From assembly GCA_021734245.1 (NCBI GenBank), contig JAIPJH010000006.1, forward strand, positions 5,194 to 69,193: a stretch of DNA of 64,000 nucleotides. Reading direction: 5' to 3'. Made by a program: the position numbers and the translations under genes. Positions 8,485-53,968 of the stretch are shown one piece after another (the first letter of the stretch is position 1; each line of letters starts with the position of its first letter). Origin of the DNA: Candidatus Cloacimonadota bacterium (GTDB taxonomy: Bacteria > Cloacimonadota > Cloacimonadia > Cloacimonadales > TCS61). The notes beneath the pieces are model-generated. The model ran no database searches and was not told the origin of the DNA. It saw only the letters and a program-made list of their open reading frames with translations.

Positions 8485-9021
8485 TTATTTATATCACTTA
8501 TTATTGTTTGAAATGCATAGTTTTAAAGCATAGTTTTTGTGTCAAGTTCGGTTTGTTGGGCAATTATATTTGAAATCACTGAATAAAATCTGTCAAAATC
8601 CTTTAAAGTTTGAATTGTAAGAATTTCATTTCGCATAGATTAAAATAAAGTAAAAAAATTGAACTTTATTCAATTCAATTATTATATAAATTATTGAACA
8701 AGGAATTTTGAAAACTTTGATACCAAACAGAAATAACGAATTTTACATATGTATAATATTTCTTGACTGATAATAATTTAATTAAAAAATAAATTAAAAT
8801 TAAAAAAACTTCTTGACCTAACTTCCTAAATTGGAGTTTTTTACCTATTGGATAATGTGAAATACAGCAAGATTCTCATAACTATGCATTATAACTATTC
8901 AAAATCCACTTTTTAGAATTATTTTTTTGGTAATTTTTGTTTTTTTTAAATGTACGTGCGCATGCATGTGATTAATAATGTGTTTAATGATAATTTAATA
9001 AAATTTTTCTTAGGAGGAAAA

Positions 9022-15000: not shown

Positions 15001-15012
15001 CTGATGAAATAG
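9022..15012 (+). CDS. Giant secreted surface protein (1996 aa): two internalin-type LRR modules, three PKD domains, three copies of an unassigned 180-aa domain, two copies of a second unassigned domain, and a T9SS-type C-terminal sorting domain
   Basis: The ATG at 9022 lies 4 nt after AGGAGG, followed by signal peptide MKFILTFFVVFFIFAGLCAQ. There are 22-residue LRRs (LTNLERLFADGNQIVDISPV...), PKD motifs (WSWDFDNDGTIDSTDENPIYTY...YTVSLTV), and a C-terminus NYPNPFNPETTISF...GVYFYKMKA. Confidence 0.85.
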   Translation: MKFILTFFVVFFIFAGLCAQTYVPDANFREAINDELGQPVGYDPTIADLNSLTGLLDVGDEGILSIEGAQYLTGIDRLYIDDNQISNLSPVAGLTNLERLFADGNQIVDISPVANLTALVQLKLDGNLIVDISAVSGLTDLYYLDLGENQIEDISPLSTLTTTSWIYLDNNQISSISALEGLVELDRLYLHNNKITEIYHLVQNAGLESGDLIYLERNGVSNPLSVEALAVHVPALEARGVDVHYPASPNLEAACYPDPEREDNTVSPANVYFTWQGSDNPADVTYKIWAGISIASMNYYGDGVHGSGTEWTSNGVVYLSSNMDMYWQIETVTTTGSLWSEIWHFSTPDANAVFADFSADQTTVTNATPITFTDESYGSITTWSWDFDNDGTIDSTDENPIYTYTTSGTYTVSLTVGNGIDTDTETKVDYITVDFVTPEFTDLGLLQSNDQSTWTPVNGSMYDYSMLLDPTEQYYFLDMTAASATNTPLQVGLHPFYFDGVPAGFFDYWAAKNVFDGCVPVDPNLPWEPIMYQIISSNLPVFYISYAADGSWQLVDGLLYELDGTQDDFRVNGDYLIGDYTITGNVTGANGIQSEDISVDIEFYTFEPDFEADQTSVIPGTTVQFTDLSNETPTAWSWDLDGDGIEDSDLQNPTFTYNTVGTYDVTLTVEWGAYDDTETKTEYIVVADLVVPDENFREALNDILGEPSGYYPTIADLNGITGTVDVSDEEIISIEGAQYLTGIDRLYIDDNQIVDLSPIAGLTNLERLFADGNEIIDISAVANLTALDQLKLDGNEIVDISAVSGLTNLYYIDLGENLIVDISPLSTFTTTSWIYLDNNFINEISALSGLLELDRLYIYGNEITDIYPLTLNTGFGDDDVLYLERYGYGNPISHESMNVYIPILETLGFSTLQYPSAANLEAACYPVPNRDATGVSLSADLQWQGNFPTDNATYKVWFGEAADNLSYVGDAISLGGNMYSFTPTLALNGEYWWRIECVGATETVWSGLWHFELQTIQLPEFTDMALNKAFDPVNGPWTAVSSTSMYDYSMTLDPNDPFVVADYYFLDIDNTVAATNMTIDSGQHPFYLDVTSVPDDFYTYWAANNVTETYATNNPGTWQALMWPIINGTEPMFLIDYNNIVPNGYFLLDGLQWAQGNVSNFIINSDYPAGDYVVSGNIESGTLVSNDIEFDLSLSRDIPEFTDLALIQAFDPVNGPWTAVPSTSNYDYSMILDPNDPFVIEDYYFLNIDNAVATTNIELQAGQHPFYLDVTSVPDDFYTYWAAKGVDGTVYTAPEDLWKNFMWPIINGTEPMFLIDFNNIVTNGYFLLDGLQWAIGDVSNFIINSDYPLGDYVVTGTVLGANLEPSEDISFNMNFHGISADFEADATSVTNGTEIQFTDLSTGNPTTWEWDFDNDGIIDSTDENPAYTYPGGGTYTVSLTVSNGTDTDTETKTDYITVAGTHFVKCWSGNGYQNMTFHIYDAAMNGEDLDVGDEIGIFDGNLCVGSLIYNGDLPFQMIASQDDPDTPESDGFSEGHDITFKLWNESSSTEYLVPEEPSYLTGDVTFTQYGTAFTKLFGYDVNALAQDIPLYNSWNLVSTYVQPYDLDMAAIFDHLIYTDALVKVQDESGNALFEIPGDDWYNGIGDLTYTEGYYTKVNADNDLYIFGDDFVTLPIDIQLSAGWNIISYPCNTSQAALPVIQPLIDLGVLEKVQNEMGLAIWFDGTNWLNQINTFYPGDGYFIKVNADCTLTIDVPTDVVARYKNAQHSNEPLNRETYHFQPEWQNNPFLPMNFYINDLEVAGVTLEANDELAVFDGDLCAGTAQVGENDMISLIAATDDVTTTEIDGFTNGNDFTFRFWDSSTDTEYSDFQYTNLSGNATFLSQGTTQSSIEFLPTSGGANLVPVTTEMFQNYPNPFNPETTISFGINDAAHVTLEVYNIKGEKVTTLIDGNLEADYYNVVWDGTDSNNKRVSTGVYFYKMKADKFVQTKKMILMK
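12076..13155 (+). repeat. In-frame 540-bp tandem duplication (two units) inside the giant gene
   Basis: The units start at 12076 and 12616 (cctgaatttacagat...). Long identical stretches include cttcagttccggatgacttctacacttactgggctgct and tgtggcctattattaatggcactgaacctatgttcct. Confidence 0.85.
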
Positions 15013-24621: not shown

Positions 24622-25647
24622 CTACTCAAAAATAGCATCTACGAAATCATTTACATTAAAATCACGCAGATCTTCCACAGCTTCTCCCACTCCGATCAGC
24701 TTAACAGGAATATCCATCTGATGTTTAATTCCAATTACAATTCCGCCTTTGGCTGTTCCATCCAGTTTTGTTAATACAATTCCAGATAGGTTTGTTGCTT
24801 TATCAAAATTGTCTGCCTGCATCAGTGCGTTTTGCCCGGTTGTGGAATCGACAACTAAAAGAGTTTCATGAGGTCCATCAGGAACTATTTTCTTTATTGT
24901 ACGAACGATCTTGGAAAGTTCGTTCATCAGGTTCACCTTGGTATGCTGACGGCCGGCTGTATCGATAAGAACAACATCGATCTTTTTATTTACTGCACTC
25001 ATCACGCCATCATAAACCACCGAAGAAGGATCAGCTCCCTGCTGCTGTTTTACAATCGAAGCATTTGATCTCTGCGACCAGATAGTAAGCTGCTCCACTG
25101 CTGCTGCCCGAAAAGTATCTCCGGCGATCAGCAAAACAGACTTTCCCATTTCATTAAATCTTTTTGCCAGTTTCCCGATCGTGGTAGTTTTTCCAACTCC
25201 GTTCACACCAACAAACAGCATGATAAATGGTTTTTTATCACCAAGTTTAAAATGATCTTCACTGCTATAATCCTGCAACAGCAGATTTCTAATAATCTCT
25301 TCCAGGTGTTCTCGAATTTGGGCAGGTTCTTTAATCTGATTCAGCTTGATTTCTGCTCGTAATTTATCAATAATATCTCCGCTGGCTTGTACTCCAACAT
25401 CTGCCTGCAGCAGCATTTCTTCCAAGTTATCCATCAAATCTTCATCGATCTTTCCACTTAGTTTTACGATTTCAGCAAGTTTCCCCAGCAATCCCTGTTT
25501 GGTTTTGGAAAGTTTCAGCTGCAGATAATCAGAATCGGTCGGTTCGCCTGGAATTCTCTTTTCCTTATTTTTTATTGCAATATATATTAAAATAGCAATT
25601 AAAATCGCTGCTGCAATTCCTAAATAGATATATAAATTTTGCTCCAT
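24622..25647 (-). CDS. ftsY: Signal recognition particle receptor
   Basis: N-terminal TM segment, NG domain motifs GVNGVGKTTTIGKLA, DTAGR and TKLDGTAKGG. Confidence 0.9.
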   Translation of the reverse strand: MEQNLYIYLGIAAAILIAILIYIAIKNKEKRIPGEPTDSDYLQLKLSKTKQGLLGKLAEIVKLSGKIDEDLMDNLEEMLLQADVGVQASGDIIDKLRAEIKLNQIKEPAQIREHLEEIIRNLLLQDYSSEDHFKLGDKKPFIMLFVGVNGVGKTTTIGKLAKRFNEMGKSVLLIAGDTFRAAAVEQLTIWSQRSNASIVKQQQGADPSSVVYDGVMSAVNKKIDVVLIDTAGRQHTKVNLMNELSKIVRTIKKIVPDGPHETLLVVDSTTGQNALMQADNFDKATNLSGIVLTKLDGTAKGGIVIGIKHQMDIPVKLIGVGEAVEDLRDFNVNDFVDAIFE

Positions 25648-25661
25648 CAATTCCTCATTAT

Positions 25662-28820: not shown

Positions 28821-30146
28821 ATGGGCTTGAAAACTTTTCCAGGGGGTATTCACCCTCATGATTCCAAGCAATTTTCCAAACATGCTTCAATTGAAAAAAT
28901 GCCAATTCCAAATAAAGTGGTAATTCCTCTTTCTCAGCATATTGGAGCTCCGGCCAAACCGATCGTAAAAGTTGGCGATGAAGTTCTGGCAGGACAGATT
29001 ATTGCCGAAGCTGGTGGATTTGTTTCCATTCCGATGCATGCTTCTATTTCAGGTAAAATTACCAAAATCGGAAGATTCAATCATCCGACCGGAATTTTAG
29101 CAGACGGAATCGAGATAACCAGCGACGGTGAAGACAAATGGGTCGATTTTATCGAAGAGGAAGAATTCATGGCGGTAGCTGTGAAGGAGATGAAAGATCG
29201 CATTGCCAAAGCAGGAATCTGCGGAATGGGTGGAGCTGGTTTTCCCACTCATGTAAAACTTTCACCACCAGAAGATAAACCGATCGATACTGTGATTTTA
29301 AATGGTGTGGAATGTGAACCTTATCTTACTGCAGATTATCGCATTATGATGGAACAACCCAATGATATCATTGCCGGCCTTAAGATCGTGATGAAAATCC
29401 TGAATGCTAAACGCGGAATTATCGGCATCGAAGAAAACAAACCGGATACAATAAAACTTTTTAAAGAACTTCTAAAAAATGAATCTAAATTAAGCGTTGA
29501 AGGTTTGAAATTAAAATATCCTCAGGGTGCAGAAAAACAATTGATCTACGCTGCTACAAAAAGAGCCGTTCCCAATAAAGGCGGACTTCCCATGGATGTG
29601 AATGTGGTAGTTCAGAATGTGGGAACTGCAATCGCAATTTATGAAGCTGTAAAATATAAAAAACCTCTTGTGGAACGTGTTATCACAGTCAGTGGAAAAA
29701 TCGTGAGAAAACCTAAGAATTTACGGGCAAGAATCGGAACTTTTTATGGAGATCTGCTGGAATTTTGCGGAGGAACAACATCCGATATCGGTAAAGTGAT
29801 CTCTGGTGGGCCGATGATGGGATTTGCAATTCCAAGCTTGGAAACTCCCATGACAAAAGGCAGTTCAGGACTTCTCTTATTTGATAAAAAAGAAGCCAAC
29901 AAAGAAAAAGAAGATGTTTGTTTGCGTTGTGCTCGTTGTGTAGACATCTGCCCCATGAACCTGGTTCCCAGCCTGATAGCAAATAACGTTCGCTATGACG
30001 ATATTGATATGGCAGAAAAATATGGTGTGATGGATTGTATGAAGTGCGGCAGTTGTGCTTATGTATGTCCTTCCCATATTAAACTGATCCAATGGATCGA
30101 TATTGGCAAACTGAAGATCAGCGAAAAACGAGCAAAAAATAAATGA
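28821..30146 (+). CDS. rnfC: Rnf electron transport complex subunit C
   Basis: MGLKTFPGGIHPHD, GMGGAGFPTHVK, and two 4Fe-4S motifs (CLRCARCVDICP, CMKCGSCAYVCP). Confidence 0.9.
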   Translation: MGLKTFPGGIHPHDSKQFSKHASIEKMPIPNKVVIPLSQHIGAPAKPIVKVGDEVLAGQIIAEAGGFVSIPMHASISGKITKIGRFNHPTGILADGIEITSDGEDKWVDFIEEEEFMAVAVKEMKDRIAKAGICGMGGAGFPTHVKLSPPEDKPIDTVILNGVECEPYLTADYRIMMEQPNDIIAGLKIVMKILNAKRGIIGIEENKPDTIKLFKELLKNESKLSVEGLKLKYPQGAEKQLIYAATKRAVPNKGGLPMDVNVVVQNVGTAIAIYEAVKYKKPLVERVITVSGKIVRKPKNLRARIGTFYGDLLEFCGGTTSDIGKVISGGPMMGFAIPSLETPMTKGSSGLLLFDKKEANKEKEDVCLRCARCVDICPMNLVPSLIANNVRYDDIDMAEKYGVMDCMKCGSCAYVCPSHIKLIQWIDIGKLKISEKRAKNK

Positions 30147-30162
30147 AAAATGCATATTTATC

Positions 30163-30277
30163 AACCCCCTGTTTCCCACTTCTCAGCGGGAGAATGAGGA
30201 ATTCGGATTCTTTTTCGTTTTCTGATTTCTGCCTTGTTAAAGGGAGATGTCTCGAGAGTTTTCGAGACAGAGGGGTT
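30163..30277. repeat. 115-bp structured repeat element inserted between rnfC and rnfD
   Basis: Terminal inverted ends aaccccctg / cagaggggtt. The left arm resembles module C (..gagaatgaggaattc). The right arm is a module B variant (tttctgccttgttaaagggaga + tgtctcgagagttttcgagaca + gaggggtt). Confidence 0.8.
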
Positions 30278-30320
30278 CGAAAGCAAAAAATAAATTAAAA
30301 ATAATAAATTTGGAGGATTT

Positions 30321-31388
30321 ATGAGCGAAGTTTATGCTGTTTCGGCAGCTCCTCATATAAAGCAAAAGATTTCTGTTTCCTCTGTGATGTGGCAGGTTGT
30401 TATCGCTTTAATTCCAGCTCTTCTGGCAGGAATTTTCTTCTTTGGAATTCAATCGCTTTTGCTTACACTTTATGCGGTGGTTGCTGCTGTTGTTACAGAA
30501 GCACTAATTCAGAGATTACGCAATGTTCCGATCTCGGTAAGTGACGGCAGTGCAGTTGTAACCGGTATTCTGGTTGCTTTCAACATCAACGTTGCTTCAC
30601 CCTGGTGGCTGCCTGTTGCAGGATCGGTTTTTGCTATTGCAGTTGGAAAGCAGATATTTGGTGGACTTGGATTTAACATTTTCAATCCGGCACTTCTGGG
30701 AAGAGCATTTTTAGTAGCTTCCTGGCCGACTTTAACTACAGCCGGATGGACTAAAACCATGCCGCTTAATGGAATTTTTGAAAGTTCGATCAATGGTTTG
30801 AAAGCACTACCATCCAATATTCCTGATGTGATTACTTCTGCCACTCCTCTTGGTGTTGCAAAAGCTCTCAGAGACACAACACAAATAAGTCGAGACATGG
30901 CAGAAACTGTTATGAATAATTTGGCAAGTACTGATACTATTCAAAATATTTTCTGGGGAAACATCGGTGGTTGTATTGGAGAAATCTCGGCTGCAGCACT
31001 TCTTATCGGTGCGGCTTATCTGGCTTATAAACACATTATTGAATGGAGAATTCCAATCAGTTATATTGGAACTGTTTTTGTTTTAATTTACATTTTTGGC
31101 GGAATAAACGGATTATTCTCAGCCTCAATCATGTTGCCGATCTTCCACATTTTCTCCGGTGGATTGATTCTGGGAGCATTTTTTATGGCTACCGATATGG
31201 TTACTTCGCCAGTTACGAAAAGAGGACGCATAATCTTCGGTATCGGCTGCGGAGTTCTAACTGTTGTCATTCGTATGGTCGGTGGATATCCGGAAGGTGT
31301 ATCCTATTCTATTCTGCTGATGAACATTGCTGTTCCACTCATCGACAGATACACTGGACCCAAGATCTTTGGGGAGGTGAAGAAATGA
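30321..31388 (+). CDS. rnfD: Rnf complex subunit D
   Basis: Polytopic membrane protein with GGLGFNIFNPALLGRAF and the FMATDMVTSP (FMN attachment region) motifs. Confidence 0.9.
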   Translation: MSEVYAVSAAPHIKQKISVSSVMWQVVIALIPALLAGIFFFGIQSLLLTLYAVVAAVVTEALIQRLRNVPISVSDGSAVVTGILVAFNINVASPWWLPVAGSVFAIAVGKQIFGGLGFNIFNPALLGRAFLVASWPTLTTAGWTKTMPLNGIFESSINGLKALPSNIPDVITSATPLGVAKALRDTTQISRDMAETVMNNLASTDTIQNIFWGNIGGCIGEISAAALLIGAAYLAYKHIIEWRIPISYIGTVFVLIYIFGGINGLFSASIMLPIFHIFSGGLILGAFFMATDMVTSPVTKRGRIIFGIGCGVLTVVIRMVGGYPEGVSYSILLMNIAVPLIDRYTGPKIFGEVKK

Positions 31389-31960
31389 AATATTATATTA
31401 AATTAGGATTTGTTTTATTAATAATTACTGCCATTGCCAGCGGAATTCTGGCTTACATCAATAGTTTTACTGAACCAATTATTGCCGAAAATCAGCGCAA
31501 AGCAAAAGAAGAAGCCCGAAAAGAAGTATTACCTGATGCTGCTTCTTTTGAAGTTATCGGTTCTTTCAACAACGAAGATGTATTTGCCGGAAAAGATGAT
31601 TCAGGAAATACTATCGGTTTTACATTTCTGGCGTCTCTTTACGGCTACAGCAGCGATGTTAAATCGATGATTGGCGTTAAAACCGATTTGATCGTGAATA
31701 AAATAAAAATAATTTCCCAAACTGAAACACCCGGTTTGGGTGCAAATTGTGAAAAACCTGAATTTCAAGCTCAATTTTCCGATAAAGGTTTAGATCAGAT
31801 GAAAGTCGACAAAGATGGTGGCCCGATTGCCAGTATAACTGGAGCTACCATTACTACAAGAACTGTTGCGAATTCAATTAAAGACGGTCTTATAATGCTG
31901 GAAAAACTGGTGGCAGAAAAAATGCCTTCCGAAACTGAAACTAAGGAGGTAACAGAATGA
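31385..31960 (+). CDS. rnfG: Rnf complex subunit G
   Basis: The ATG at 31385 overlaps the rnfD TGA. N-terminal TM MKYYIKLGFVLLIITAIASG. FMN-binding motif ITGATITTRTV. Confidence 0.88.
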   Translation: MKYYIKLGFVLLIITAIASGILAYINSFTEPIIAENQRKAKEEARKEVLPDAASFEVIGSFNNEDVFAGKDDSGNTIGFTFLASLYGYSSDVKSMIGVKTDLIVNKIKIISQTETPGLGANCEKPEFQAQFSDKGLDQMKVDKDGGPIASITGATITTRTVANSIKDGLIMLEKLVAEKMPSETETKEVTE

Positions 31961-32538
31961 TCAAAGAATTTACCAAAGGATTTATAAAAGAAAATCCCGT
32001 CTTCGTGATGGCTCTTGGTTTGTGTCCAACGTTGGCTGTTTCTTCTTCTGTGATGAACGCAATTGGCATGGGATTGGCTGCCACATTTGTGCTGGTTTGT
32101 TCAAATATTATCATCTCGCTCATCAAGAATTTCATTCCAAATAAGATCCGCATTCCGGCTTACATCGTGGTTATAGCTTCTTTCGTTACGATCGTGGATA
32201 TGGTGATGGAAGCTTATGTTCCTGCGCTGCACAAAAGTCTGGGATTGTTCATTCCGCTCATTGTGGTTAACTGCATTATTTTGGGAAGAGCGGAAGCTTT
32301 TGCCGGCAAAAACGGCGTTTTCAAATCGTTTTTGGATGGTTTGGGAATGGGACTCGGTTTCGCGCTTGCTCTTATTGTAATTGCCACGATCAGAGAGATT
32401 CTGGGTGCAGGACAATTTTTGGGAATGAATGTTCTTCCTGCCACTTATAAACCAATGCTGGTAGCAATTTTAGCTCCCGGTGCATTTATCGTTATGGGCC
32501 TTTTGATGGGTGCCATGAATTTGAAGAAAAAGAAATAA
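31957..32538 (+). CDS. rnfE: Rnf complex subunit E
   Basis: ATGA overlap with rnfG. GLCPTLAVS and IVVNCIILGRAEAFA motifs. Confidence 0.9.
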   Translation: MIKEFTKGFIKENPVFVMALGLCPTLAVSSSVMNAIGMGLAATFVLVCSNIIISLIKNFIPNKIRIPAYIVVIASFVTIVDMVMEAYVPALHKSLGLFIPLIVVNCIILGRAEAFAGKNGVFKSFLDGLGMGLGFALALIVIATIREILGAGQFLGMNVLPATYKPMLVAILAPGAFIVMGLLMGAMNLKKKK

Positions 32539-32548
32539 GGAGACATAA

Positions 32549-33136
32549 ATGGAATTCGTAGGAAATATTTTCGCGATGGCAATCGCCGCCATCTTTGTTC
32601 AAAACTTTGTACTCATGCGTTTTCTGGGACTTTGTCCCTATATTGGTGTTTCCAAAAAAGTAGATTCCGCTTTTGGTATGGGAATGGCAGTTATTTTCGT
32701 GATGACAATGGCTTCCACATTTACCTGGCTCATTCAAAACTATCTGCTGGTTCCACTCAATCTGGAATTCCTGCAGACAATCGCTTTTATTTTAACGATT
32801 GCTTCTCTGGTGCAGCTGGTAGAAATGATCATCCAGAAAACAGCACCGGCACTTTATAAAGCGTTGGGAGTTTTCCTGCCGCTTATCACAACAAACTGTG
32901 CAGTTTTGGGAGTTGCGATCCTTAACATTAATGAAAATTACAATTTTATCGAAGCAATTTTAAATGGACTTTTTGCAGGTTTGGGATTTACTCTCGTTTT
33001 AGTTCTAATGGCTGGAATCAGGGAAAAACTGGAAAAAGCAGAACTTCCACAAGCGATGAAGGGAATGCCGATTGCAATGATCGTAGCCGGTTGTATGGCT
33101 CTGGCTTTCCTGGGATTTTCGGGATTGAAACTGTAA
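32549..33136 (+). CDS. rnfA: Rnf complex subunit A
   Basis: [15 protein letters not shown] and [12 protein letters not shown] motifs, 195 aa. Confidence 0.9.
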
Positions 33137-33146
33137 GGGGAAAAAC

Positions 33147-34049
33147 ATGATAATAATTTATGCAATAATAGTTTTAGGAGTGCTGGGACTGATCTACGGA
33201 TTGGGTCTGGCTTTCGCGTCCAAGAAATTTCACGTTCAAGTTGATCCCAAAATAGATAAGATCAATGAAGTACTGCCGGGAGTGAATTGCGGAGCTTGTG
33301 GTCTTGCCGGTTGCGGTGGTTATGCAGAAGCAATTGTGAATGGCGGAGAACCAATAAATAAATGTGCGCCCGGTGGTGATGAAGTTGTTGCCAAAATTGC
33401 TGAGATTATGGGAATCGAAGCTTCTGCTGCCGATAAAAAAGTAGCTCTGATCCACTGCCAGAGTGGTGGATACAACAACACTTTCTTCCGTTATGATTAC
33501 CAGGGAATAAAAACCTGTAAAGCAGCCGTTCTGGTTGCCAAAGGGCCAAATCTGTGTAACTACGGCTGTGTTTTTCAAAATGATTGTATTGCCGCTTGTA
33601 TGTTCGATGCCATTCATCTGGATGAAAACGGAATGCGCATCATCGATAAAGAAAAATGCACCGGCTGTGGAGCTTGTGTAACTGCCTGTCCTCGCGATCT
33701 TATCGAACTGGTTCCTATCAAAAAACGCGTTCATGTTTTATGTTCATCGCATGATAAAGGTGCCGAAGCCAGGAAACGCTGCGGCAACAAAACAGCTTGT
33801 ATCGGCTGCAGTCTCTGCGCAAAGAAATGCCCTAAAGATGCAATTACAATGCAGGATGATCTCGCTGTCATCGATTATGAAAAATGCATTAATTGCGGAA
33901 TGTGTGCCGATGTCTGCCCGACTGGTGCAATTTTCGATCCTTTAAAAGAAGTTCGTGCCAAAAAGAAAGCAGAAGCAAAAGCCAAAGCAGAAGCTGCAAA
34001 GAAAAAATTGGCAGACAAGAAAACCGCAGATAAAAAAGAAGATAAATAA
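33147..34049 (+). CDS. rnfB: Rnf complex subunit B (polyferredoxin) with a Lys/Ala-rich C-terminal tail
   Basis: N-terminal TM segment, [15 protein letters not shown], several CxxCxxCxxxCP clusters, and the tail [21 protein letters not shown]. Confidence 0.88.
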
Positions 34050-35705: not shown

Positions 35706-35720
35706 AATAATATAATTAAC

Positions 35721-36061
35721 TGTCATTCTGAGTTAACTTTTAGCTTTACCTGCGACTGAGTCCGGCGAAGCTTTGCCAAGCCGGAACGATCTCGTGAGAT
35801 TTCTCTCAACTTTATTTAAAGAGGAAGTTGGACTTCACGTCTCGTGGAGTCTGTATGTTTCTGAACTTCGTCTGGAAGTTTATATTTAATTGATCGAGGA
35901 CGATCAAAATGAAACTTATAGTTCAATCGAGACGAATGAACTAACCTTTCGTGAAAACAATTGAGATTCTTCCCACCTGTGTCGGCGAAGCTTGGCAGAC
36001 CTGGTGGAATTGGAAAAAACTAGCAGCAAAGCTGCATTCCACAGGGCTGGCAGAATGACGA
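35721..36061. mobile_element. MITE-like non-autonomous element, copy 1 (about 340 bp)
   Basis: Terminal inverted repeats tgtcattctg (35721) and cagaatgacg (36051-36060). The right arm of about 60 nt is near-identical to 42510-42571. No ORF. Confidence 0.6.
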
Positions 36062-36179
36062 AATTTTTTATATTTAATCAGCGTTTATTTGCATTCATCT
36101 GCGGTTAATTTAATAAAAGAAATTGACTCATTTCTTTCTATACAAATATTCGATTGAGATAAATTAATGAGGAGGGCAC

Positions 36180-37262
36180 ATGAAAAACTTTCGATTAGTT
36201 TTTGTTTTATTTTTTATTTTCAGTCTAAACCTGATCTGGAGTCAAAGCATCGCACGCTGGTATACTTCGATGGGAGATTTTGAAGTAACATTGCGCGAAG
36301 ATCTGATGCCGATTACAACAAATAACTTTCTGGACCTAACCAATTCAAACTTCTATGATAACCTGATTTTTCACCGTGTTATTGCAGATTTCATGATCCA
36401 GGACGGCTGACCACTGGGAACAGGCTACGGAGGTCCGGGCTATACAATTCCAGATGAATGGAATCCACTGGTAAATTATAATGAACCTTATGTAATCGGA
36501 ATGGCAAACACTGGCGCACCAAATTCTGCTGGATCACAATATTTCATAACAGTAGAGCCGACAACCTGGTTGAATGGCGATTATGCTGCTTTTGGTCACG
36601 TGACAATGGGAAGCGATATCGTGGAAGACATCAGTGAAGTTCCTACAGATGCAAACGATAAACCGTTAGTTGACGTTGAGATCGACAGTGTGCGAATTAT
36701 GACAGCACAATTTTACGGGTTCAGTCCCGAAGAAGATTCGCTTTATGTGAATGCCGGCGATCCGCTGGTTTTCGGAATGCTTACAAATGAACCGGATGTA
36801 ACTTTCAGTTGGTACGTGGACGATGAACTTCAAACCGAAACAGGTTTTCTTTTCAATGTTTCGCTTACTGTAAATGGTTGGCATGAAATCGTGGGAATCG
36901 GTACAAAAAATGGCTATGATTATGCAAAAACCTGGTGGGTTGAAATAACAGGAGGTTCTCATCTTGATGATATTCTAACGGCAAACAAAAATGTTCTTCT
37001 GCCAAATTCACCTAATCCATTCAATCCGGAAACGAATATTTCCTTCTATTTGAATGCTGCTGAAAAAGCCGTTTTGAAAATTTACAACGCAAGAGGAGAA
37101 TTGGTGAAAATTCTGGTTAATTCTCAGCTTACAGCCGGTTTCCATTCCTATATTTGGAATGGAACAGACTCTTCCAACCAAAATGTTGCCAGCGGAATTT
37201 ATTATTATCAACTTCGAGCAGGAAATCAAACACAAACCCGCAAAGCACTTTTATTGAAATAA
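36180..37262 (+). pseudogene. Secreted cyclophilin-type peptidyl-prolyl isomerase with a T9SS-type C-terminal domain, interrupted by an in-frame TGA at 36408-36410
   Basis: ORFs 36180-36410 and 36501-37262 share one frame. The continuous reading [30 protein letters not shown]...MANTGAPNSAGSQYFIT gives the cyclophilin core. C-terminus NSPNPFNPETNISF...GIYYYQLRA. Confidence 0.65.
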
Positions 37263-37273
37263 AAAATTACTAA

Positions 37274-37314
37274 ACTCCCGATTCATCTTTTTGTGGATCG
37301 GGAGTATTATTTTG
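37274..37314 (+). terminator. Intrinsic terminator
   Basis: The stem actcccgat (37274-37282) pairs with atcgggagt (37297-37305), followed by attatttt. Confidence 0.6.
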
Positions 37315-37321
37315 GATTTAT

Positions 37322-38572
37322 ATGAAAATAGCAATTATAGGTTTTGGCGCAGCCGCAATTGGTTACATCGAAAGAATTAAAAATTCGCCACATGAGATCC
37401 ATGTTTTTGAAAAAAGCAAAGACATCTACTCTTCCAGTATTTCCGGTATTCGAGCTGATGGGAAATTATTTGTTTCCCGCGAAATGGGTGGCAGCATCGA
37501 AGTGGATGAAGCTTTGCAGAATAAGCTAGTACAATTTTATCTGGATAAGACTGATAATAATCAATTTGAGCGGGGAAGTTCATTCTCTTCCAAAACGTTT
37601 TACAAACAATTTTACGAGAAGGGGTTTCAACCCATTCATTCCGAATTTTATCATTTGGGAACAGATCAACTCAAACAGGTTTTATACAAAATTTACGAAG
37701 ATTTCAAGCTTCATAAAAATATTTTTTTTCATTTCAGCGAAAATATAACCGATATCGAACCGATAGCTGGAAAAATCATTATTAATGCAAAAGATACTTT
37801 CGATAGAGTGATAGTTGCAGTCGGCAGAAGCGGTCATAAATTGGTTAAGAGGATCATTTCCAAATTTCCAAAACTGATCACCGATAATACCAGGGTCGAT
37901 CTTGGTGTGCGTTTCGAGCTTCCCGATCATATCGTGGAAGAGTTGAATAAAGAAATGTATGAATTCAAGGTGAAATACCGTAGCAAAACCGGTTATATGG
38001 TGCGCACTTTCTGCAACAATCCCAGCGGTTATGTTGTCACCGAAACTTATGAAGATTTCGTTACTGTGAACGGTCATTCCAAACTGCATGAAAAAAGCAA
38101 GAATACAAATTTCGCAATCCTGACGACCGTTCAACTAACAGAGCCTTTTAACGATCCCGTCGGATACGGATCGCATATTGCTCAATTGTCGAACATTCTG
38201 GCAGGCCAGAATAAAGTGATCTTGCAGACTTACGAAAATTTTGTGAATTCCAAGCGTACAAAACACCTTTATCGGGTTCTTCCCACTTTAGATAGTAATA
38301 GTTTTATTCTGGGAGATATCAACCTGGCTTTTCCGCGCCGTATTGCGGAAAGTATAATTGATTTTATCGATAATCTGGATAAAGTCGTTCCCGGAATTGC
38401 CAATGGTGACAATCTGCTTTACGCTCCAGAAATCAAATTTTATTCAAACTTGCTGGATAATAATCATTTTAATAATTTGAAATTCATTGGAGATTGTTCC
38501 GGTGGCACCAGATCGATAATTTACGCCACAGCTCATGGCTGGCAGATGGCAGAAACAACGCTGGATGATTGA
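37322..38572 (+). CDS. FAD-dependent oxidoreductase (uncharacterised dehydrogenase family)
   Basis: N-terminal dinucleotide fold MKIAIIGFGAAAIGY..HVFEK and the C-terminal motif GDCSGGTRSIIYA. Confidence 0.55.
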   Translation: MKIAIIGFGAAAIGYIERIKNSPHEIHVFEKSKDIYSSSISGIRADGKLFVSREMGGSIEVDEALQNKLVQFYLDKTDNNQFERGSSFSSKTFYKQFYEKGFQPIHSEFYHLGTDQLKQVLYKIYEDFKLHKNIFFHFSENITDIEPIAGKIIINAKDTFDRVIVAVGRSGHKLVKRIISKFPKLITDNTRVDLGVRFELPDHIVEELNKEMYEFKVKYRSKTGYMVRTFCNNPSGYVVTETYEDFVTVNGHSKLHEKSKNTNFAILTTVQLTEPFNDPVGYGSHIAQLSNILAGQNKVILQTYENFVNSKRTKHLYRVLPTLDSNSFILGDINLAFPRRIAESIIDFIDNLDKVVPGIANGDNLLYAPEIKFYSNLLDNNHFNNLKFIGDCSGGTRSIIYATAHGWQMAETTLDD

Positions 38573-47833: not shown

Positions 47834-47960
47834 TGCAAATTTAATTTATAAATATATATAATGTCACCAACTTACAAAAAAAATGAGTTTCACCTTGAAA
47901 AAAAGTTCTTGTCAAGAAGTCGGCAGAGAATTTTGTGAGGTCTAAGAATGTGGGGTATTG

Positions 47961-50900
47961 ATGCTTAGAAAGCTCATTATTCTGGTAAGTTTGTTTTTAC
48001 CATTATGTCTTCTGGCAAATTCGTTTGAAGTTATTGAAATGGAAGAAGATTATTTAATGGTAAAATTTACTCTTCCAGATTATCAAATTGAGAAAGTTGA
48101 AAGAAATAGTGTACAATATGATCGCATCTTTTGTAAAGGCGCTGCTTACACAAATGATCGTGATCGTTATGTACTGCCATTTTTTGGTGAAACTATCGGT
48201 TTGCCAATTGATGGAAATATGCATATTCGCATCATCGATCAGCATCAAACCAAAATTTCCACAAATTTTTTATTGCCTGTTCAAGAATCTTTTTATGAAG
48301 AAAATCCAAATGGAAGAAAAAAACAGAGATCAAACGAGCTTTACCCTCCCCTATTATTAAAGAAAAACGAACCGGCATATCTGGGAGATAGATATTTTTG
48401 TGGATTCAGTATTTTTCCTTTTCAATATAATGAAGCAACTAAAACAATAAAAGTAACTACAGAATTAACTTTTAGAATCGACATCGAAGGTGTCGATAAC
48501 GGGCGATCTACATTTACAAGAAGTGAAAATTTCATCGATAAATACGGAGACGAATTTTTCCTGAACAATCGTTTTTCGCAAAATTGGCGAAGACCGCGGG
48601 AAAACACTTCTGGTTCTTATTCCAGCAATCGAGACGGCGATCTTGTTAATGAAGTTCAGATTATTGTAGATGAAGAAGGAATCTATAAAATAACTCGCCA
48701 AATGCTGCAGGATGCGGTATCCGATCCTGAATTTCCCATCGATTTTGAAATGGCTTTCGATTGGAATGATATCGATCCACGTTTTCTGGAATTGAGAAAT
48801 GAATATGGTGTTGTTCCCATAAACTTTGTTGGTGAAGCTGACGGTTCTTTCGATTCAAATGATTATTTCGAATTCTTCGGAGACAGGCATAACGGCGATA
48901 ATGAATTCAACGACGATTTTACAGCAGAAAACGTTTATAATCTTTCTTTAGAAGATCATTTCGGAAGCCGCATGGCTATCGAAAATGGTGGTTTGAATGC
49001 CGTAAATCCGAATGCCATAACTGTGCCAACCTCCTTCCTGCAAACTGTAAGAATTGAACAGCAAAGCTTGACCGATCTTCTGGTTGCTCAATGGGAATTT
49101 AATACACCTAATTTCTTTAGAGAAGATATCTGGTTCTGGGATAAAATTACTGCTCCCAGCCTGCATGCCTATCCTTTTGATATCCAATATCCGGTTGAAT
49201 CAAATAGCCGTCGATTTACTGCAGAGGTTTGTTTGTTTGGTCTTACATATAATCGTTATAATTACGAAGAAATCAATCATAAAGCTCAGATAAATATCAA
49301 TGAAACACTGATCGACATCGATGAATGGTATGGTCAAACTGAAAAGATATTGAACAACAACGATAATCCACTTGTAAATCTTCATTTGCAGCATGGAGAA
49401 AATATTCTTTATGTAAATCTTCCAGGAATTCCCGGCATTGAAAATGAAAGCGTTTTACTTGATTATCTTGAATTGAATTACTGGCGTGAATATAAAACAG
49501 ATACGAACTATCTCCATTTTCAACGTCCTCCCGATCAATCCTCAGGCATCTATGAATTTGAACTGGAAAATTTTTCCACTCCCGATATTTCAGTTTACAA
49601 ACTCGGCTCCAGTAAATTTGAAAATGTACTCATAACTCCTGACGATGATACAGGTGGTGCGCCATACATGGCTACTTTTCAAGACAGTATAAACCTGGAT
49701 TCCTTTGAATACATCGCTGTTACCGACAGCATGAAAAAAGTTCCGCTAAAGATTCAGCCAAATCTTCCGTCATCTTTGCGTGATCCTATGAATTCAGCGG
49801 AGTATATCATTATTACTGCTCAAGAATTTAAGCAGAATGAATTTTTGCTGCAGTATAAACAAGTTTGGGAAGATGAAGGTCATGTTCTTAAGATCGTATC
49901 CGTAGAAGATATATTTGACGAATTCAATGGTGGTATTCGATCTGCAGAAGCAATTCGAGATTTCTTGAGCTATGCCTACAATAACTGGAGTGCTACATTA
50001 CTTTCTCACGTGTTGCTGTTGGGTGATGGCCTTACTGATGAACGAGATAACAGTCCACTTCGTGGAAACAATTTGATCCCTTTCAAAAACGTTTGGGTTG
50101 AAGCTCGTGGTGCTATTGCCAGCGATAATTGGATGGCTTGTATTATCGGAGACGATCCGGTAGCCGATATCAGTATCAGCAGAATCACGATCTGGCAGGA
50201 AGATCAGATCGGACCTGTTTTGGATAAATCTATTTATTATAAAAATACAAATAACTTTGAAGATTACTGGCACAGCAATGTTACACTTGCAGCCGGCGGA
50301 AATCCAGGTGAAGGCTCTTTTTTCGCTTTGCAAAGTGAAAATGTTCGTCATACTTGGATACCAGACAAGTTCAACGTAAAAAGAATATATTGTAATGTGC
50401 AAAATCTGCCCTCAGGATATTTTGGTAACACAACCAGTCTAATCAGCAATATCAATGACGGATCTGTTTATGTTCAATTTATGGGTCATGGTGGCGGCTA
50501 TGTCTGGGCAGATTATAACCTTTTGAATAAATATGATATTAATACATTTAATAATGAGAATTATCCACTTGTATCCAGCCTTTCCTGTTATGGTTCGGCT
50601 TTCAATTTTGCCGGCTCCTCCTGCATCGGAGAAGAACTGATCCTTACACCGGGCAAAGGAGCGATCGGACATATCGGTTTTACAGGTTATGGCTATTTGA
50701 ATGCTGATGAATATTTTGCACTTAAGATCAATCAGGCACTTTTTGGTCTTAACATGTCGAACGTAGGTGAAATAGTTGATTTCACCAAGGCACAATTCTA
50801 TGCCCATTATGGAAATGGTGCAATTGGTAATGCTTTAACAAGCGGTTGCGCACTTCTGGGCGATCCATTTATCAACATTTACATTCCCGATGAAACAGTT

Positions 50901-52952
50901 GATATTGAATTGAATGATCATAACCTTGCTGTTGGTGATACATTGCAATTTTCAGCATTTGTAGGTAATGATATCGAAGAAGGAAAATTCGTAATCTATG
51001 ATGAAAATGATATTCAACTGCCTTTGAATCTATATTTTCCCTTTAATATTCCAAACACAAATGGTTATATTAATGGAAGTTTCATAATTCCTGATGAATA
51101 TAGCGGAATTACGAATCATTCAGTAAAACTTTTTGCTCAAGGACCAGAAAAAGAACTGGTTGGAATTGACGACTATTCGATTGGTCAAGCGGTGCTTTCC
51201 AACCTGACAATAACTCCCGAGCAACCAACAGAATATGACGAAATAATGATCGGAGCTGATTTCTTCGATGAAGATGGAATCGATCAAGTTAAGTTTTATA
51301 ATCTTTCCGAAGGATATGCTTTGGATATGGTAAATGTGGAAGATAATTATTATCAGCTAAACCAGATACTTCCTCCACACATTCCCGGCAGTGATATCGA
51401 CTTCCGATTTAAGATCTTTGATGCTATCGGAGACTCAACTACAACTGATAATTATGAAGTTATTATTGCAGGACCTGATCTCTGGTTGGAACATATTCAG
51501 TTATCTGAATTTAATAATGAACCAGCAGTTAAACTTTTTATGCGAAATATTGGTGAAATCGATGCTCCCGGATTCAACCTTAGAATATATGATGCTCTGG
51601 ATAATTATAATCTTCTGTCTACTCAAAGTATCGATCCTTTAGCAGTATCAGAAGGAAGATGGGTTTATGTTCCGCTTCCACTTATGAATAATTTCTCTAA
51701 ATTCTTTGGAATTATCAATCAATACGGTGAATCTTTTGCGGAGATCACTCTTTCAAATAATATGCTGCTTTCCGATATATATCAGATGAATATGTATCTG
51801 GCACAAAATGGCACAGTAGCTACCTCTCTTGATAACAATTTTGAGTGCGAATTTTCGTCGGAGATTAACAGTTTGCAACCAATTATTTATATTAATGAAA
51901 ATGATTATTTGCAACCGCTAAATCAGCCTGACGTTTCCACTGTTGTGCTTCCTGATACCACATATTCCAAAGTATATGAAGTGGGAACTTTGAGTGAAGA
52001 TATTTTAGCAGATTCAATTGGTCATTTTGTGAATAATGGCAGTATGACAATTCGCATAAATTACAGCTCTACCGATTCTTTAACTCAGTATCTGGAAAAC
52101 CAGAATAATTTTAATGTTTATCGCTGGGAAGATTATTATGAAAAATGGATAAAAATCGGTGGAACGCTTCACACTGATGAAGATTATATCGAAGTAGAAG
52201 TTGATCGAATAGGAACTTACACTATTTTACACAATCAAGATACTACCATTCCTTTTGTAGAAGTAAACGTCGAAGATCAGGAATTGACGCAAACTTATGC
52301 TTCACTAAGCAATCCTGATTATATTAAAGTTGGCTATATAGCAAAAGATGGAATTATTTCATACACTATCTTCGATAAAAATGGTATTGATATTTTTGAC
52401 AGAAAACTATCGCTTCAACTGGATGATGGAACCAATGTAACAGACATAAATGAAAATGAATTTTCTTTGACTGCAACCTATAACAAATTAACAGAATTAC
52501 CTGTAAAATATCAACTTCCAGATTTGGCAAAAGGCCAATACACTGTTATCCTAAATTGCCATGATGTTAATGGAAATCCCAAAAATATGGTTTTCGAATT
52601 TTCGGTAAATTCCAAATTTGATATTTTAAATTTTGCAAATTATCCAAATCCAGTTGAATCAAACACTTTGTATCCCGAAAATGAAGGACGAACCCGTTTT
52701 ACCTATGTATTAACAGATGATGCCGATGAAGTTTATATTAAAATCTATACCGTAAGTGGAAGATTGGTAAAAACATTCAGAGATTTACCAAGTGCTGTTG
52801 GTTATCATGAGTTTCCACGCTCTGATATTGGTTGGGATTGCCGAGATAATAAAGGACATTACCTGGCAAATGGCGTGTATTTTTATAGAATAACAGCAAC
52901 CAAGGGAAATAAGCGAATCCAGAAAACTCAGAAAATGGCTATTTTAAAATAA
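47961..52952 (+). CDS. Peptidase C25 (gingipain/PorU-like) protein, 1663 aa, with a T9SS-type C-terminal sorting domain
   Basis: Signal peptide MLRKLIILVSLFLPLCLLANS. His/Cys dyad FMGHGGGYVWAD and SSLSCYGSAF, with the His and Cys 33 residues apart as in gingipains. C-terminus NYPNPVESNT...GVYFYRITA. Confidence 0.7.
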   Translation: MLRKLIILVSLFLPLCLLANSFEVIEMEEDYLMVKFTLPDYQIEKVERNSVQYDRIFCKGAAYTNDRDRYVLPFFGETIGLPIDGNMHIRIIDQHQTKISTNFLLPVQESFYEENPNGRKKQRSNELYPPLLLKKNEPAYLGDRYFCGFSIFPFQYNEATKTIKVTTELTFRIDIEGVDNGRSTFTRSENFIDKYGDEFFLNNRFSQNWRRPRENTSGSYSSNRDGDLVNEVQIIVDEEGIYKITRQMLQDAVSDPEFPIDFEMAFDWNDIDPRFLELRNEYGVVPINFVGEADGSFDSNDYFEFFGDRHNGDNEFNDDFTAENVYNLSLEDHFGSRMAIENGGLNAVNPNAITVPTSFLQTVRIEQQSLTDLLVAQWEFNTPNFFREDIWFWDKITAPSLHAYPFDIQYPVESNSRRFTAEVCLFGLTYNRYNYEEINHKAQININETLIDIDEWYGQTEKILNNNDNPLVNLHLQHGENILYVNLPGIPGIENESVLLDYLELNYWREYKTDTNYLHFQRPPDQSSGIYEFELENFSTPDISVYKLGSSKFENVLITPDDDTGGAPYMATFQDSINLDSFEYIAVTDSMKKVPLKIQPNLPSSLRDPMNSAEYIIITAQEFKQNEFLLQYKQVWEDEGHVLKIVSVEDIFDEFNGGIRSAEAIRDFLSYAYNNWSATLLSHVLLLGDGLTDERDNSPLRGNNLIPFKNVWVEARGAIASDNWMACIIGDDPVADISISRITIWQEDQIGPVLDKSIYYKNTNNFEDYWHSNVTLAAGGNPGEGSFFALQSENVRHTWIPDKFNVKRIYCNVQNLPSGYFGNTTSLISNINDGSVYVQFMGHGGGYVWADYNLLNKYDINTFNNENYPLVSSLSCYGSAFNFAGSSCIGEELILTPGKGAIGHIGFTGYGYLNADEYFALKINQALFGLNMSNVGEIVDFTKAQFYAHYGNGAIGNALTSGCALLGDPFINIYIPDETVDIELNDHNLAVGDTLQFSAFVGNDIEEGKFVIYDENDIQLPLNLYFPFNIPNTNGYINGSFIIPDEYSGITNHSVKLFAQGPEKELVGIDDYSIGQAVLSNLTITPEQPTEYDEIMIGADFFDEDGIDQVKFYNLSEGYALDMVNVEDNYYQLNQILPPHIPGSDIDFRFKIFDAIGDSTTTDNYEVIIAGPDLWLEHIQLSEFNNEPAVKLFMRNIGEIDAPGFNLRIYDALDNYNLLSTQSIDPLAVSEGRWVYVPLPLMNNFSKFFGIINQYGESFAEITLSNNMLLSDIYQMNMYLAQNGTVATSLDNNFECEFSSEINSLQPIIYINENDYLQPLNQPDVSTVVLPDTTYSKVYEVGTLSEDILADSIGHFVNNGSMTIRINYSSTDSLTQYLENQNNFNVYRWEDYYEKWIKIGGTLHTDEDYIEVEVDRIGTYTILHNQDTTIPFVEVNVEDQELTQTYASLSNPDYIKVGYIAKDGIISYTIFDKNGIDIFDRKLSLQLDDGTNVTDINENEFSLTATYNKLTELPVKYQLPDLAKGQYTVILNCHDVNGNPKNMVFEFSVNSKFDILNFANYPNPVESNTLYPENEGRTRFTYVLTDDADEVYIKIYTVSGRLVKTFRDLPSAVGYHEFPRSDIGWDCRDNKGHYLANGVYFYRITATKGNKRIQKTQKMAILK

Positions 52953-52954
52953 TT

Positions 52955-53968
52955 ATGAAAAAATATATTTGGTTATTGATTCTAATAAGTTTGGCAGTCG
53001 TCCAGCTTCATGCTGGATATTATGCTGGTGATTTCATGGTGATCGGAAACGGGGTAAGGCCTCTTAGTATGGGAGGAGCTTTTTCGGCCGTCGCAAATGA
53101 TTGTTCAGCAATTTATTGGAATGCGGCTGGACTGGCTCAAATTAGAAAATCCGAGTTAAGCATTAATCATTCATTCCTATACGGCAACCTGGCTTCTTAT
53201 GATAATTTCACTTTTTGTAAACCTTTGCCAAATGACGTAACAGTAGGTATAAACTGGACTCGATTATCTATCTCCGACATTCCCGTATTCCTGGAAGAAC
53301 ACCTGATTTACAATGTAGATTTCAGAAGTTCTTTTCTGGAATTTAATCTACCAGGCCAACCAGATGACATGATAAAGAGCGCTGATGATCTTTTTCAAAT
53401 TGCATTTGCCAAACATCTTCATAAAGATCTTTACTTAGGATGGTTATTTCTGGAATTACCGGTTGACTTCAATTTTGGAATCAGCGCAAAATATTTAAAT
53501 CGTAAAATAGACGAATATAAAGGTTCTGGAATTGGCTTCGATGCTTCCATATTATTTAAAACCAGTTTAGCTGTAATTATTGGAAGAAGCTGGTTGGGAG
53601 AATTTGCTTTTGGCTTGAATTATCAGGATATCAGCAATACAAAAATCACCTGGAATACAATGTCTAATCACTCAGATGAAGTAGAAGATAATGTAAAGTT
53701 GGGATTCGCTGTTATCCAACCTATTAAGAAATTTAATTCAGAATTGGTGATTGCTGCAGATATCGATTATATTTATGATAATTGCAATCATTATGGAATC
53801 GAATATAAATGTAAAGATTTAGTTTCAATGCGGATGGGTATCAACGACAATGATTTTACAACAGGCCTGAGTGTAAAATTGTATGATATAAACATTGATT
53901 ATGCTTTTACAACCAATGTTATTGGTAATACAAATAGGATAGGGTTAAGATATGAATTTGACAAGTGA
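52955..53968 (+). CDS. Outer-membrane beta-barrel protein, PorV/PorQ-like
   Basis: The ATG lies 2 nt after the upstream stop. Signal peptide, the motif RPLSMGGAFSAVANDCSAIYWNAAGLA, alternating beta-strand pattern, and C-terminal GLRYEFDK. Confidence 0.5.
   Translation: MKKYIWLLILISLAVVQLHAGYYAGDFMVIGNGVRPLSMGGAFSAVANDCSAIYWNAAGLAQIRKSELSINHSFLYGNLASYDNFTFCKPLPNDVTVGINWTRLSISDIPVFLEEHLIYNVDFRSSFLEFNLPGQPDDMIKSADDLFQIAFAKHLHKDLYLGWLFLELPVDFNFGISAKYLNRKIDEYKGSGIGFDASILFKTSLAVIIGRSWLGEFAFGLNYQDISNTKITWNTMSNHSDEVEDNVKLGFAVIQPIKKFNSELVIAADIDYIYDNCNHYGIEYKCKDLVSMRMGINDNDFTTGLSVKLYDINIDYAFTTNVIGNTNRIGLRYEFDK

Follow-up and report, generated by a model that had tools for sequence, protein, structure and literature searches.

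We analysed a window of 64,000 nucleotides (nt) of a Candidatus Cloacimonadota bacterium (positions 5,194-69,193 of contig JAIPJH010000006.1, assembly GCA_021734245.1), in which a cyclophilin gene carries an in-frame UGA inside its conserved core, and we consider it very probable, from comparison of sequences, that this UGA at codon 77 directs SelB-dependent insertion of selenocysteine (Sec), giving an exported cyclophilin of 360 amino acids (aa) with a sorting domain of the type IX secretion system (T9SS). Positions 36180-37262 of the forward strand form one frame of 361 codons, 360 of them sense when UGA77 is read, followed by the terminal TAA (37260-37262); the sole internal stop is the TGA at 36408-36410. 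Mechanical calling of open reading frames (ORFs) cuts the gene in two, 36180-36410 (76 aa) and 36501-37262 (253 aa). That these halves share a frame had been pointed out in a first-pass annotation of this DNA, and the junction letters that it quoted, ATG ATC CAG GAC GGC TGA CCA CTG GGA ACA GGC TAC GGA GGT CCG GGC, read exactly so at 36393-36440. The full coding sequence of the proposed selenoprotein precursor (36180-37262) is supported by the single frame, by two full-length 360-aa orthologues found by protein search (P0001, 85% identity; P0002, 83%) and by synteny across loci L056-L064.

The full-length orthologues inspected all read FMIQDGCP, with Cys at the TGA codon. In a scan of species-representative genomes, the codon was TGY in 33 of the 37 loci with the motif, TGA in 2 (both in Cloacimonadota metagenome-assembled genomes, MAGs) and GAC in 2 (L032 and L034, both Bacteroidales, the only loci with Asp). 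The first-pass annotation had implied Asp as the replaced residue, and the orthologue comparison that it recommended corrects this to Cys, the residue of the subfamily. In these alignments, then, the UGA (36408-36410) pairs with the Cys of QDGCP, at the site of the Asp of GGDP in other cyclophilins, and such a pairing of TGA with Cys is the characteristic sign by which selenoproteins are recognised. In the tree, Sec and Cys forms are intermingled within a single clade of Cloacimonadota, the outgroups of which have Cys, and parsimony on 26 sequences requires 5-7 Sec/Cys switches, a range that holds under bootstrap. TGA forms occur in at least three lineages, two others being L050, which stands beside the Cys form L012, and L053. 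The latter (PDWI01000475.1, 3551 onward) is a TGA form of 656 aa that belongs to a distant lineage, with the same QDG*P codon and a long, different C-terminal region, and it looks as though it had either gained Sec independently or diverged long ago.

Besides the window, 21 loci of Cloacimonadota, from genomes and from metagenomes, have the TGA at this codon: two in species-representative genomes (L001, JAUSOT01, and L009, JAIPIH01), 10 metagenome loci from the Joint Genome Institute (JGI) and nine loci behind database proteins of 253-264 aa. The metagenome scan, run with a DNA pattern that contained the TGA, gave the 10 genuine loci and one chance match. The protein search also returned matches of 252-264 aa that share one internal Met start (55-68% identity), and the DNA behind these short matches held a split gene every time, with fragments of 76-77 aa and 253-264 aa; because the database entries fetched split the genes in this way, the family is under-annotated in Cloacimonadota MAGs. 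Together the TGA forms make up 16 distinct sequences, with pairwise protein identity as low as 53%, and the frame is unbroken before as well as after the TGA in all loci uncut by a contig end, except L060 (Ga0366826_1176258). This TGA form has an N-terminal frameshift at about 380-400, with an apparent short duplication, CTTACCATCTTACCAAT, which would be either a low-coverage assembly error or a genuine pseudogene of a selenoprotein gene. The order of genes is also kept: amidase, major facilitator superfamily (MFS) transporter, rnfCDGEAB, tetratricopeptide repeat (TPR) protein, unknown gene, cyclophilin, flavin adenine dinucleotide (FAD)-dependent protein, ATP-cone kinase, KdsB, MnmG, ProRS and CinA.

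Downstream of the UGA, at 36414-36453 (nt +7 to +46 from its U), lies a stem-loop like a selenocysteine insertion sequence (SECIS), indicated by its fold, by a contrast in pairing between Sec and Cys forms and by a peak of synonymous-site conservation. CUGGGA pairs with UUCCAG in its lower helix, which is followed by an internal loop and an apical hairpin, and the minimum-free-energy fold of 48 nt has -12.7 kcal/mol. The apical hairpin, GGCU(A)CGG-AGGU-CCGGGCU at 36423-36441 with its loop AGGU at 36431-36434, has counterparts in other Sec forms; the window variant has a bulged A and the AGGU tetraloop, with GGU 25-27 nt from the U of the UGA, and in L053 this position is taken by another hairpin, GGGAC-AGGUG-GUCCC, with GGU at +22-24. 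We computed synonymous-codon identity on 12 non-redundant TGA forms and found a gene mean of 0.54, with the top four 8-codon windows (0.78-0.81) starting 4-7 codons past the UGA. This peak is limited here to TGA forms, in which codons 6-13 downstream are frozen (1.00 vs. 0.25 in Cys forms at codon +8, Gly; 0.83 vs. 0.29 at codon +9, Pro; and 1.00 vs. 0.39 at codon +10, Gly). The frozen bases, UAC GGG GGU CCC GGC, are those of the hairpin CGGG-GGU-CCCG, whereas the hairpin codons of Cys forms are relaxed (GGT GGA CCA vs. GGG GGT CCC in TGA forms).

The pairing itself follows the same division. In a named structure composed of a lower helix (9-13/41-45), two further pairs (15-16/38-39) and an apical helix (21-24/28-31), 87.5% of cells are paired in 16 Sec forms vs. 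65.6% in 14 Cys forms, and for the apical helix alone the figures are 92% vs. 59%. Pair 24-28 is G-C in 13/16 Sec forms vs. 0/14 Cys forms, and pair 15-39 is formed in 13/16 vs. 2/14. The hairpin codons are lost in the nearest Cys form each time that close relatives are compared (L045 vs. L003; L059 vs. L004 and L006; the window vs. L002). The published model of the bacterial SECIS (bSECIS) has an apical loop of 3-9 nt with G then G/U early, an upper stem of 4-16 bp, a spacing of 16-37 nt and a minimum free energy of -7.5 kcal/mol or lower (PMC13188914), and the loop content, spacing (20-21 nt) and energy found here agree with these constraints. Rfam holds no matching SECIS family, and its search of the window gave only the signal recognition particle (SRP) RNA. 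Taken together, the synonymous constraint peculiar to TGA forms and the pairing support a real RNA element. The protein sequence may have had a part in its origin: Gly-Gly-Pro-Gly, encoded GGN GGN CCN GGN, is self-complementary at the RNA level and yields a small hairpin about 20 nt past the Cys codon, which probably made the Cys-to-Sec transition easy. We regard this as a possible case of a pre-adapted SECIS, and as an example of how such an element may originate, in which codons of an invariant protein motif, suitably spaced from a Cys codon, supply the larger part of the hairpin.

Genes for Sec decoding are found in the lineage. L002 (DAISYT010000067.1), the nearest Cys-form relative (73% identity to the window protein), has sel genes directly upstream of its cyclophilin gene (3600-4682), namely selB (897-2843, reverse strand) and a tRNA-Sec gene (3413-3505, forward strand), the latter called by ARAGORN and matching Rfam RF01852 at 60.1 bits vs. 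a cut-off of 47. The encoded SelB is divergent, with 648 aa and the domains GTP_EFTU, Beta-barrel_SelB and SelB-wing_3; the best 120 of its homologues that were listed are 48-100% identical to it, and their named sources are Cloacimonetes/Cloacimonadota, Tenebribacter and one 'Armatimonadetes' MAG; within the phylum, SelB is widespread. In L002, Sec-decoding genes adjoin a gene that has the TGA form in sister lineages and Cys in L002, an adjacency that may be chance or a remnant of linkage. In contrast to L002, the 474-nt intergenic stretch before the window gene (35706-36179) gave no tRNA-Sec in an Rfam search, only a chance-level match to Enterococcus-1 (19.9 bits, gathering threshold 71.4); a terminator-like hairpin lies within it at 35829-35853. 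The closest SelB homologue (74%) and a tRNA-Sec gene share one contig of run SRR12088346, which also yields a contig identical to the window, and the GC content of the two is nearly equal (37.3% for the selC-selB contig vs. 37.2% for the window). A passage of PMC5330540, citing Mukai et al. 2016, describes a 'Cloacimonetes type' tRNASec.

We searched the protein with Cys set at stop codon 77. The Pfam Pro_isomerase profile (PF00160) covers aa 29-172 (36264-36695), thus spanning the TGA, with 142.1 bits (cut-off 21.7) over positions 6-158 of a 159-position profile, and among solved structures the best match to this cyclophilin-type peptidyl-prolyl isomerase (PPIase) domain has E = 1.9e-33. The blocks of the window protein, TWLNG included, align with the catalytic and pocket blocks of solved cyclophilins, so that the residues of the PPIase pocket are kept; in human CypA numbering we take these catalytic and pocket residues to be R55, F60, M61, Q63, A101, N102, Q111, F113 and W121. 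By alignment, the equivalent of H126 is Tyr, and residue 77 lies 3 positions after the pocket Gln and 11 after the catalytic Arg. Solved cyclophilins bear Asp at this site, as in FMIQTGDPLGDGTGG and FMIQGGDPTGTGRGGPGY (FMIQTGDP and FMIQGGDP), in agreement with the canonical motif MIQGGDP.GTG.GGPGY cited in the first-pass annotation. The canonical Asp of the (G/T)GDP loop is not kept in this subfamily (the window has UGA and most orthologues have Cys; L032 and L034 alone have Asp), and on the aligned sequences its loss is a subfamily variant still within the cyclophilin fold family.

Around the core, the protein has features that would suit an exported product. The signal-peptide-like N-terminus, MKNFRLVFVLFFIFSLNLIWSQS followed by IARW (36180-36248), shows, on inspection by eye, a basic n-region, a hydrophobic core and a small-x-small motif, the cleavage site being placed in the same way, and these features are kept in orthologues. 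Pfam gives no significant match to the middle region of the window protein, aa 176-275 (36705-37004); two homologues have an entry for PF00801 (PKD), and the predicted model of the 85%-identical orthologue has beta strands here (pLDDT, the predicted local distance difference test, 65-90). In that model, an AlphaFold2 prediction for the Cys orthologue from an 11-sequence alignment, pLDDT is below 50 across the whole PPIase domain. The C-terminus, aa 278-356 (37011-37247), is a T9SS type A sorting domain (TIGR04183, 35.9 bits vs. a cut-off of 23), and Pfam FlgD_ig (44.6 bits), Por_Secre_tail (PF18962, 29.6 bits, cut-off 27) and CHU_C match over aa 271-356. Among the best 120 of 1013 homologue matches, most pair PF00160 with PF18962 and/or PF13860; their source is Cloacimonadota, and loci of Bacteroidales that encode this cyclophilin core (relatives of about 555 aa) were found in addition by the genome scan. 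A cyclophilin with a T9SS tail, which had at first been regarded as unusual cargo, is therefore a common architecture of Cys forms in Cloacimonadota, with longer relatives in Bacteroidales.

The pathway that we propose from these features would run as follows. A ribosome on the cyclophilin mRNA would meet UGA77, and the stem-loop 7-46 nt downstream would recruit SelB-GTP with Sec-tRNASec, its apical hairpin presenting GGU to SelB about 21 nt past the UGA; Sec would then be inserted in place of termination to yield the 360-aa precursor. The N-terminal signal peptide would carry this precursor across the inner membrane, and the type A sorting domain would pass it to the T9SS, so that the product would be a surface or extracellular cyclophilin with no Cys-type residue other than the selenol of the QDG-U-P loop. 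Both the binding of SelB to the hairpin and the export of the product are steps that we infer.

Several other explanations of the in-frame TGA have to be weighed. Were this a plain pseudogene, inactivated by a nonsense mutation and decaying in the remainder, one could understand that gene callers split it into pieces of 76 and 253 aa and that the related locus L060 is frameshifted as well; however, the TGA is kept in the 16 distinct sequences, which are as little as 53% identical and have no further stop, the 30 codons from the TGA to the next ATG encode the invariant GTGYGGPGY core, and the tree shows that the TGA forms are not one clonal, very recent lineage. Among TGA forms, the ratio of nonsynonymous to synonymous substitution (dN/dS) is 0.03-0.10 upstream of the codon and 0.14-0.26 downstream, and the proportion of synonymous differences (pS) between the window and other TGA forms is 0.65-0.94, near saturation; by this measure, both halves of the gene are under purifying selection. 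A sequencing or assembly error in one base of a Cys codon (TGY as TGA) would suffice to create the stop, yet independently assembled contigs of two runs, SRR12088346 and SRR12088349, match window positions 36031-37962 with 100% identity over 1.5-1.9 kb, junction included, and the 21 further loci with the same TGA come from unrelated projects. The conserved TGA, the selection on both sides and the identical contigs therefore make untenable a pseudogene, as well as the very recent nonsense mutation and the sequencing error that the first-pass annotation had listed as options; we hold the pseudogene to be very improbable and the error to be practically negligible. The chance that UGA is reassigned to sense throughout the lineage (code 4 or 25) is just as slight. 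The in-frame TGA itself speaks for reassignment, and no more does: TGA terminates 11 of the 51 window ORFs of at least 100 aa, Pfam profiles are complete right before it in EPSP synthase, MnmA, RnfD, RnfC, AP_endonuc_2 and MnmG, and no other gene in the 64-kb window requires read-through, so a reassigned code is excluded, as had been argued at the outset from genes that stop at TGA. Two other ORF pairs split by TGA were considered and rejected: 2-577/578-1009 is EPSP synthase ending normally beside another gene, and 6174-6470/6471-6812 is antisense noise. Finally, translation might terminate at the UGA and re-initiate, giving a secreted peptide of 76 aa and, from the ATG at 36501, a C-terminal protein of 253 aa; this ATG lies 30 codons downstream and is the start that gene callers choose. 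Such a C-terminal product would be missing the signal peptide and one half of the cyclophilin fold, few codons of the gene are as well conserved as those that separate the TGA from this ATG, and the ATG is not universal; in L064 the downstream piece is called from an earlier ATG (264-aa P0053), and P0042 is called from two codons past the TGA, where homologues have Leu. We judge re-initiation highly improbable.

What probability remains beyond a Sec codon lies mainly with SECIS-independent read-through, in which the UGA-C would occasionally be decoded by a near-cognate tRNA (Trp, Cys or Arg) to give a selenium-free full-length protein. All TGA forms have C right after the UGA, a context that terminates weakly in bacteria; the hairpin is small and its match to a generic bSECIS is non-specific; and the Sec machinery is tied to the window by sequencing run and lineage rather than by presence in the same genome. 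Read-through leaves unexplained, however, why the orthologues have Cys specifically, why codons 6-13 downstream are frozen only together with the TGA, and why all organisms with TGA forms belong to a phylum with SelB and tRNASec; moreover, Trp, the usual misreading of UGA, would replace an invariant small residue. Read-through, one of the four options first put forward for this codon, can thus be kept as a rival, though an improbable one, and it is the Sec option, with its conserved TGA, Cys orthologues, hairpin codons confined to TGA forms and selB/selC in the lineage, that these observations support.

Insertion of Sec at UGA77 nevertheless has a number of points to its disadvantage, the most general being that the support for it comes from sequence comparison. 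The 64-kb window holds no tRNA and no sel gene (Pfam analysis of about 45 ORFs gave no selA, selB or selD), and the two closest SelB homologues come from assemblies other than the TGA-form MAGs, the link being one sequencing run and matching GC content. We therefore infer selB and selC in the organism's own genome from the shared run, the GC content and the lineage, and the search for sel genes that had been advised has a divided outcome, with selB and selC in L002 and in the same run and none in the window. The outcome is divided for the SECIS prediction as well. A strict coded bSECIS filter passes 14 of the 16 TGA forms, but also 15/35 Cys/Asp forms (because their Gly-Gly-Pro-Gly codons can already pair with one another at a suitable distance) and 9.4% of TGA triplets picked at random in the window, so its specificity is low; the window hairpin, with a spacing of 20, fails the strict rule of 4 contiguous bp and passes only when the 1-nt bulge, the bulged A, is allowed (3 bp, bulge, 3-4 bp). 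The hairpin is small. The single-sequence fold of the 63 nt after the UGA is no better than that of shuffles (z = -0.31), and RNAalifold on the 16 Sec forms gives a weak consensus (-3.0 kcal/mol) with no compensatory pairs. Because these two folds are weak, we rested the analysis on synonymous sites and on how Sec forms differ from Cys forms; covariation on the named structure is likewise modest, 14-15 of 500 shuffles reaching the observed values. As to the protein, the window sequence has no other Cys and no motif of the CxxU type, the PPIase domains of its relatives show no further Cys that is conserved, and residue 77 stands in for the canonical Asp rather than for a known catalytic Cys, so that the usual rationale for Sec is missing.

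Compared with known systems, the gene resembles those of the Escherichia coli fdhF type, which have an intragenic SECIS and depend on SelB, in its in-frame UGA, in the Cys of its homologues and in the stem-loop directly downstream. The small apical loop with GGU (+25-27 in the window, +22-24 in L053) is likewise of the fdhF type, the loop bases of the fdhF SECIS being G23 and U24, and so is the bulged base below a short upper stem in the window variant. The spacing of 20-21 nt falls in the 16-37 nt range of the bSECIS model, and the lineage has selB and selC. Unlike fdhF, the gene belongs to a different protein family, has an upper stem of just 3-5 bp, has no CxxU/UxxC motif or partner Cys, and builds its hairpin from invariant Gly-Gly-Pro-Gly codons, such that Cys forms are already half-way there. 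The protein resembles cyclophilins such as Mycobacterium tuberculosis PpiA (1W74) and the PPIase domain of Arabidopsis CYP71 (6LKB) over the full domain (E from 1e-31 to 1e-33), and it keeps the motifs FHRVI, FMIQ, GxGxGGPGY, MANxG and SQ(F/Y)FIT. It differs from them in that the Asp of (G/T)GDP is the proposed Sec (Cys in relatives), that the Gly two residues earlier is Asp (QDG-U/C-P), and that a signal-peptide-like N-terminus, a beta-rich region and a T9SS sorting domain are added. With its Cys-form relatives, the Cloacimonadota orthologues and the Bacteroidales proteins of about 555 aa, it shares the architecture and the QDGCP motif and, in Cloacimonadota, also the neighbourhood (rnfCDGEAB-TPR-unknown-cyclophilin-FAD), and it differs from them in having TGA for TGY and in the hairpin codons, which are relaxed in the Cys forms. 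As in T9SS type A cargo (TIGR04183), its C-terminal domain scores above the curated cut-off. We know of no other T9SS cargo that has been proposed to carry Sec.

Full-text searching of the literature found no report of a Sec-containing cyclophilin. A 2026 review of prokaryotic selenoproteomes (PMC13188914) contains no cyclophilin, peptidyl or prolyl isomerase or PF00160, the Global Ocean Sampling (GOS) selenoproteome paper and the deep-Sep paper have no cyclophilin and no peptidyl entry, and the text of the BSepDB paper has no cyclophilin or prolyl entry, its supplementary family list being outside the search and a listing under another name being possible. The recoding mechanism would be ordinary for bacteria and the fold ordinary for cyclophilins, and it is their combination that appears to be new. 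More than 110 families of prokaryotic selenoproteins are known, mostly thiol oxidoreductases (PMC13188914); if confirmed, a cyclophilin-type prolyl isomerase would join them with unusual features, namely a fold that is not that of an oxidoreductase, no partner Cys, a Sec at the Asp position of canonical cyclophilins and predicted export with a T9SS tail. The finding would also point to a functional importance of the Cys that is conserved in the QDGCP subfamily, a group widespread among Cloacimonadota and Bacteroidales. Reversions from Sec to Cys are said to be rare (PMC13188914), a statement on which the frequent switching between Sec and Cys within this single gene family has a bearing.

What the selenol would do is a matter for more tentative reasoning. 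Because the Cys for which Sec stands in is almost always catalytic or redox-active (PMC13188914), our guess by analogy is that the selenol would add a redox or nucleophilic role to a folding catalyst of an anaerobe. One may go further and imagine, as a possibility that we consider rather doubtful, that the Sec/Cys residue does more than passively take the place of the canonical Asp and that the lone selenol provides a second chemistry by the isomerase pocket (redox, selenylsulfide-forming, or a nucleophile that traps metal or substrate), which would make the protein a bifunctional extracellular foldase of anaerobes. To our knowledge, the cyclophilin fold has no known thiol chemistry. If that second chemistry were real, this would be the first selenoenzyme to combine a cyclophilin fold with export by a T9SS, and the 5-7 switches among 26 sequences would reflect tuning to selenium supply or redox conditions.

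The remaining features of the transcription unit lie on the forward strand. A weak, putative promoter-like site (TTGACT, 16-nt spacer, AATATT; 9/12 in a consensus scan) is located at 36123-36150, and a Shine-Dalgarno-like AGGAGGG is read directly at 36170-36176, 3 nt before the ATG. Past the stop codon, a sequence scan finds an intrinsic-terminator-like element (37274-37315) made up of a hairpin of 13 pairs (37274-37305) and a T-rich tail, which accords with the initial claim that an intact sorting domain and a terminator follow the TGA. The gene of the TPR protein, the unknown gene and that of the cyclophilin come right after a complete operon of the rnfCDGEAB type (28821-34049, forward), in an order kept in L064. 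After the cyclophilin comes the gene for the FAD-dependent protein (37322-38572, forward; 416 aa, PF21688, no NCBIfam name), which is present downstream in every related Cloacimonadota locus with an annotated downstream gene, in Sec and Cys forms alike.

Elsewhere in the window, a 1664-aa C25 peptidase (47958-52952; Propeptide_C25, Peptidase_C25 and a FlgD_ig tail of the kind seen in the cyclophilin) has a C-terminus resembling that of the PorU sortase, and directly after it (52955-53968) comes a protein that matches the PorV/PorQ family NF033709 at 87.3 bits, slightly short of the cut-off (90); this pair (47958-53968, forward) is a candidate for T9SS attachment components in a Cloacimonadota genome. 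Another large cargo protein is encoded by the 2020-aa ORF at 8950-15012 (forward), the last 120 aa of which match TIGR04183 (40.7 bits). Between this gene and hisS lies the bacterial large SRP RNA (8221-8483, reverse; RF01854, 189 bits), and FtsY, an SRP54-type GTPase, is encoded at 24622-25650 on the reverse strand.

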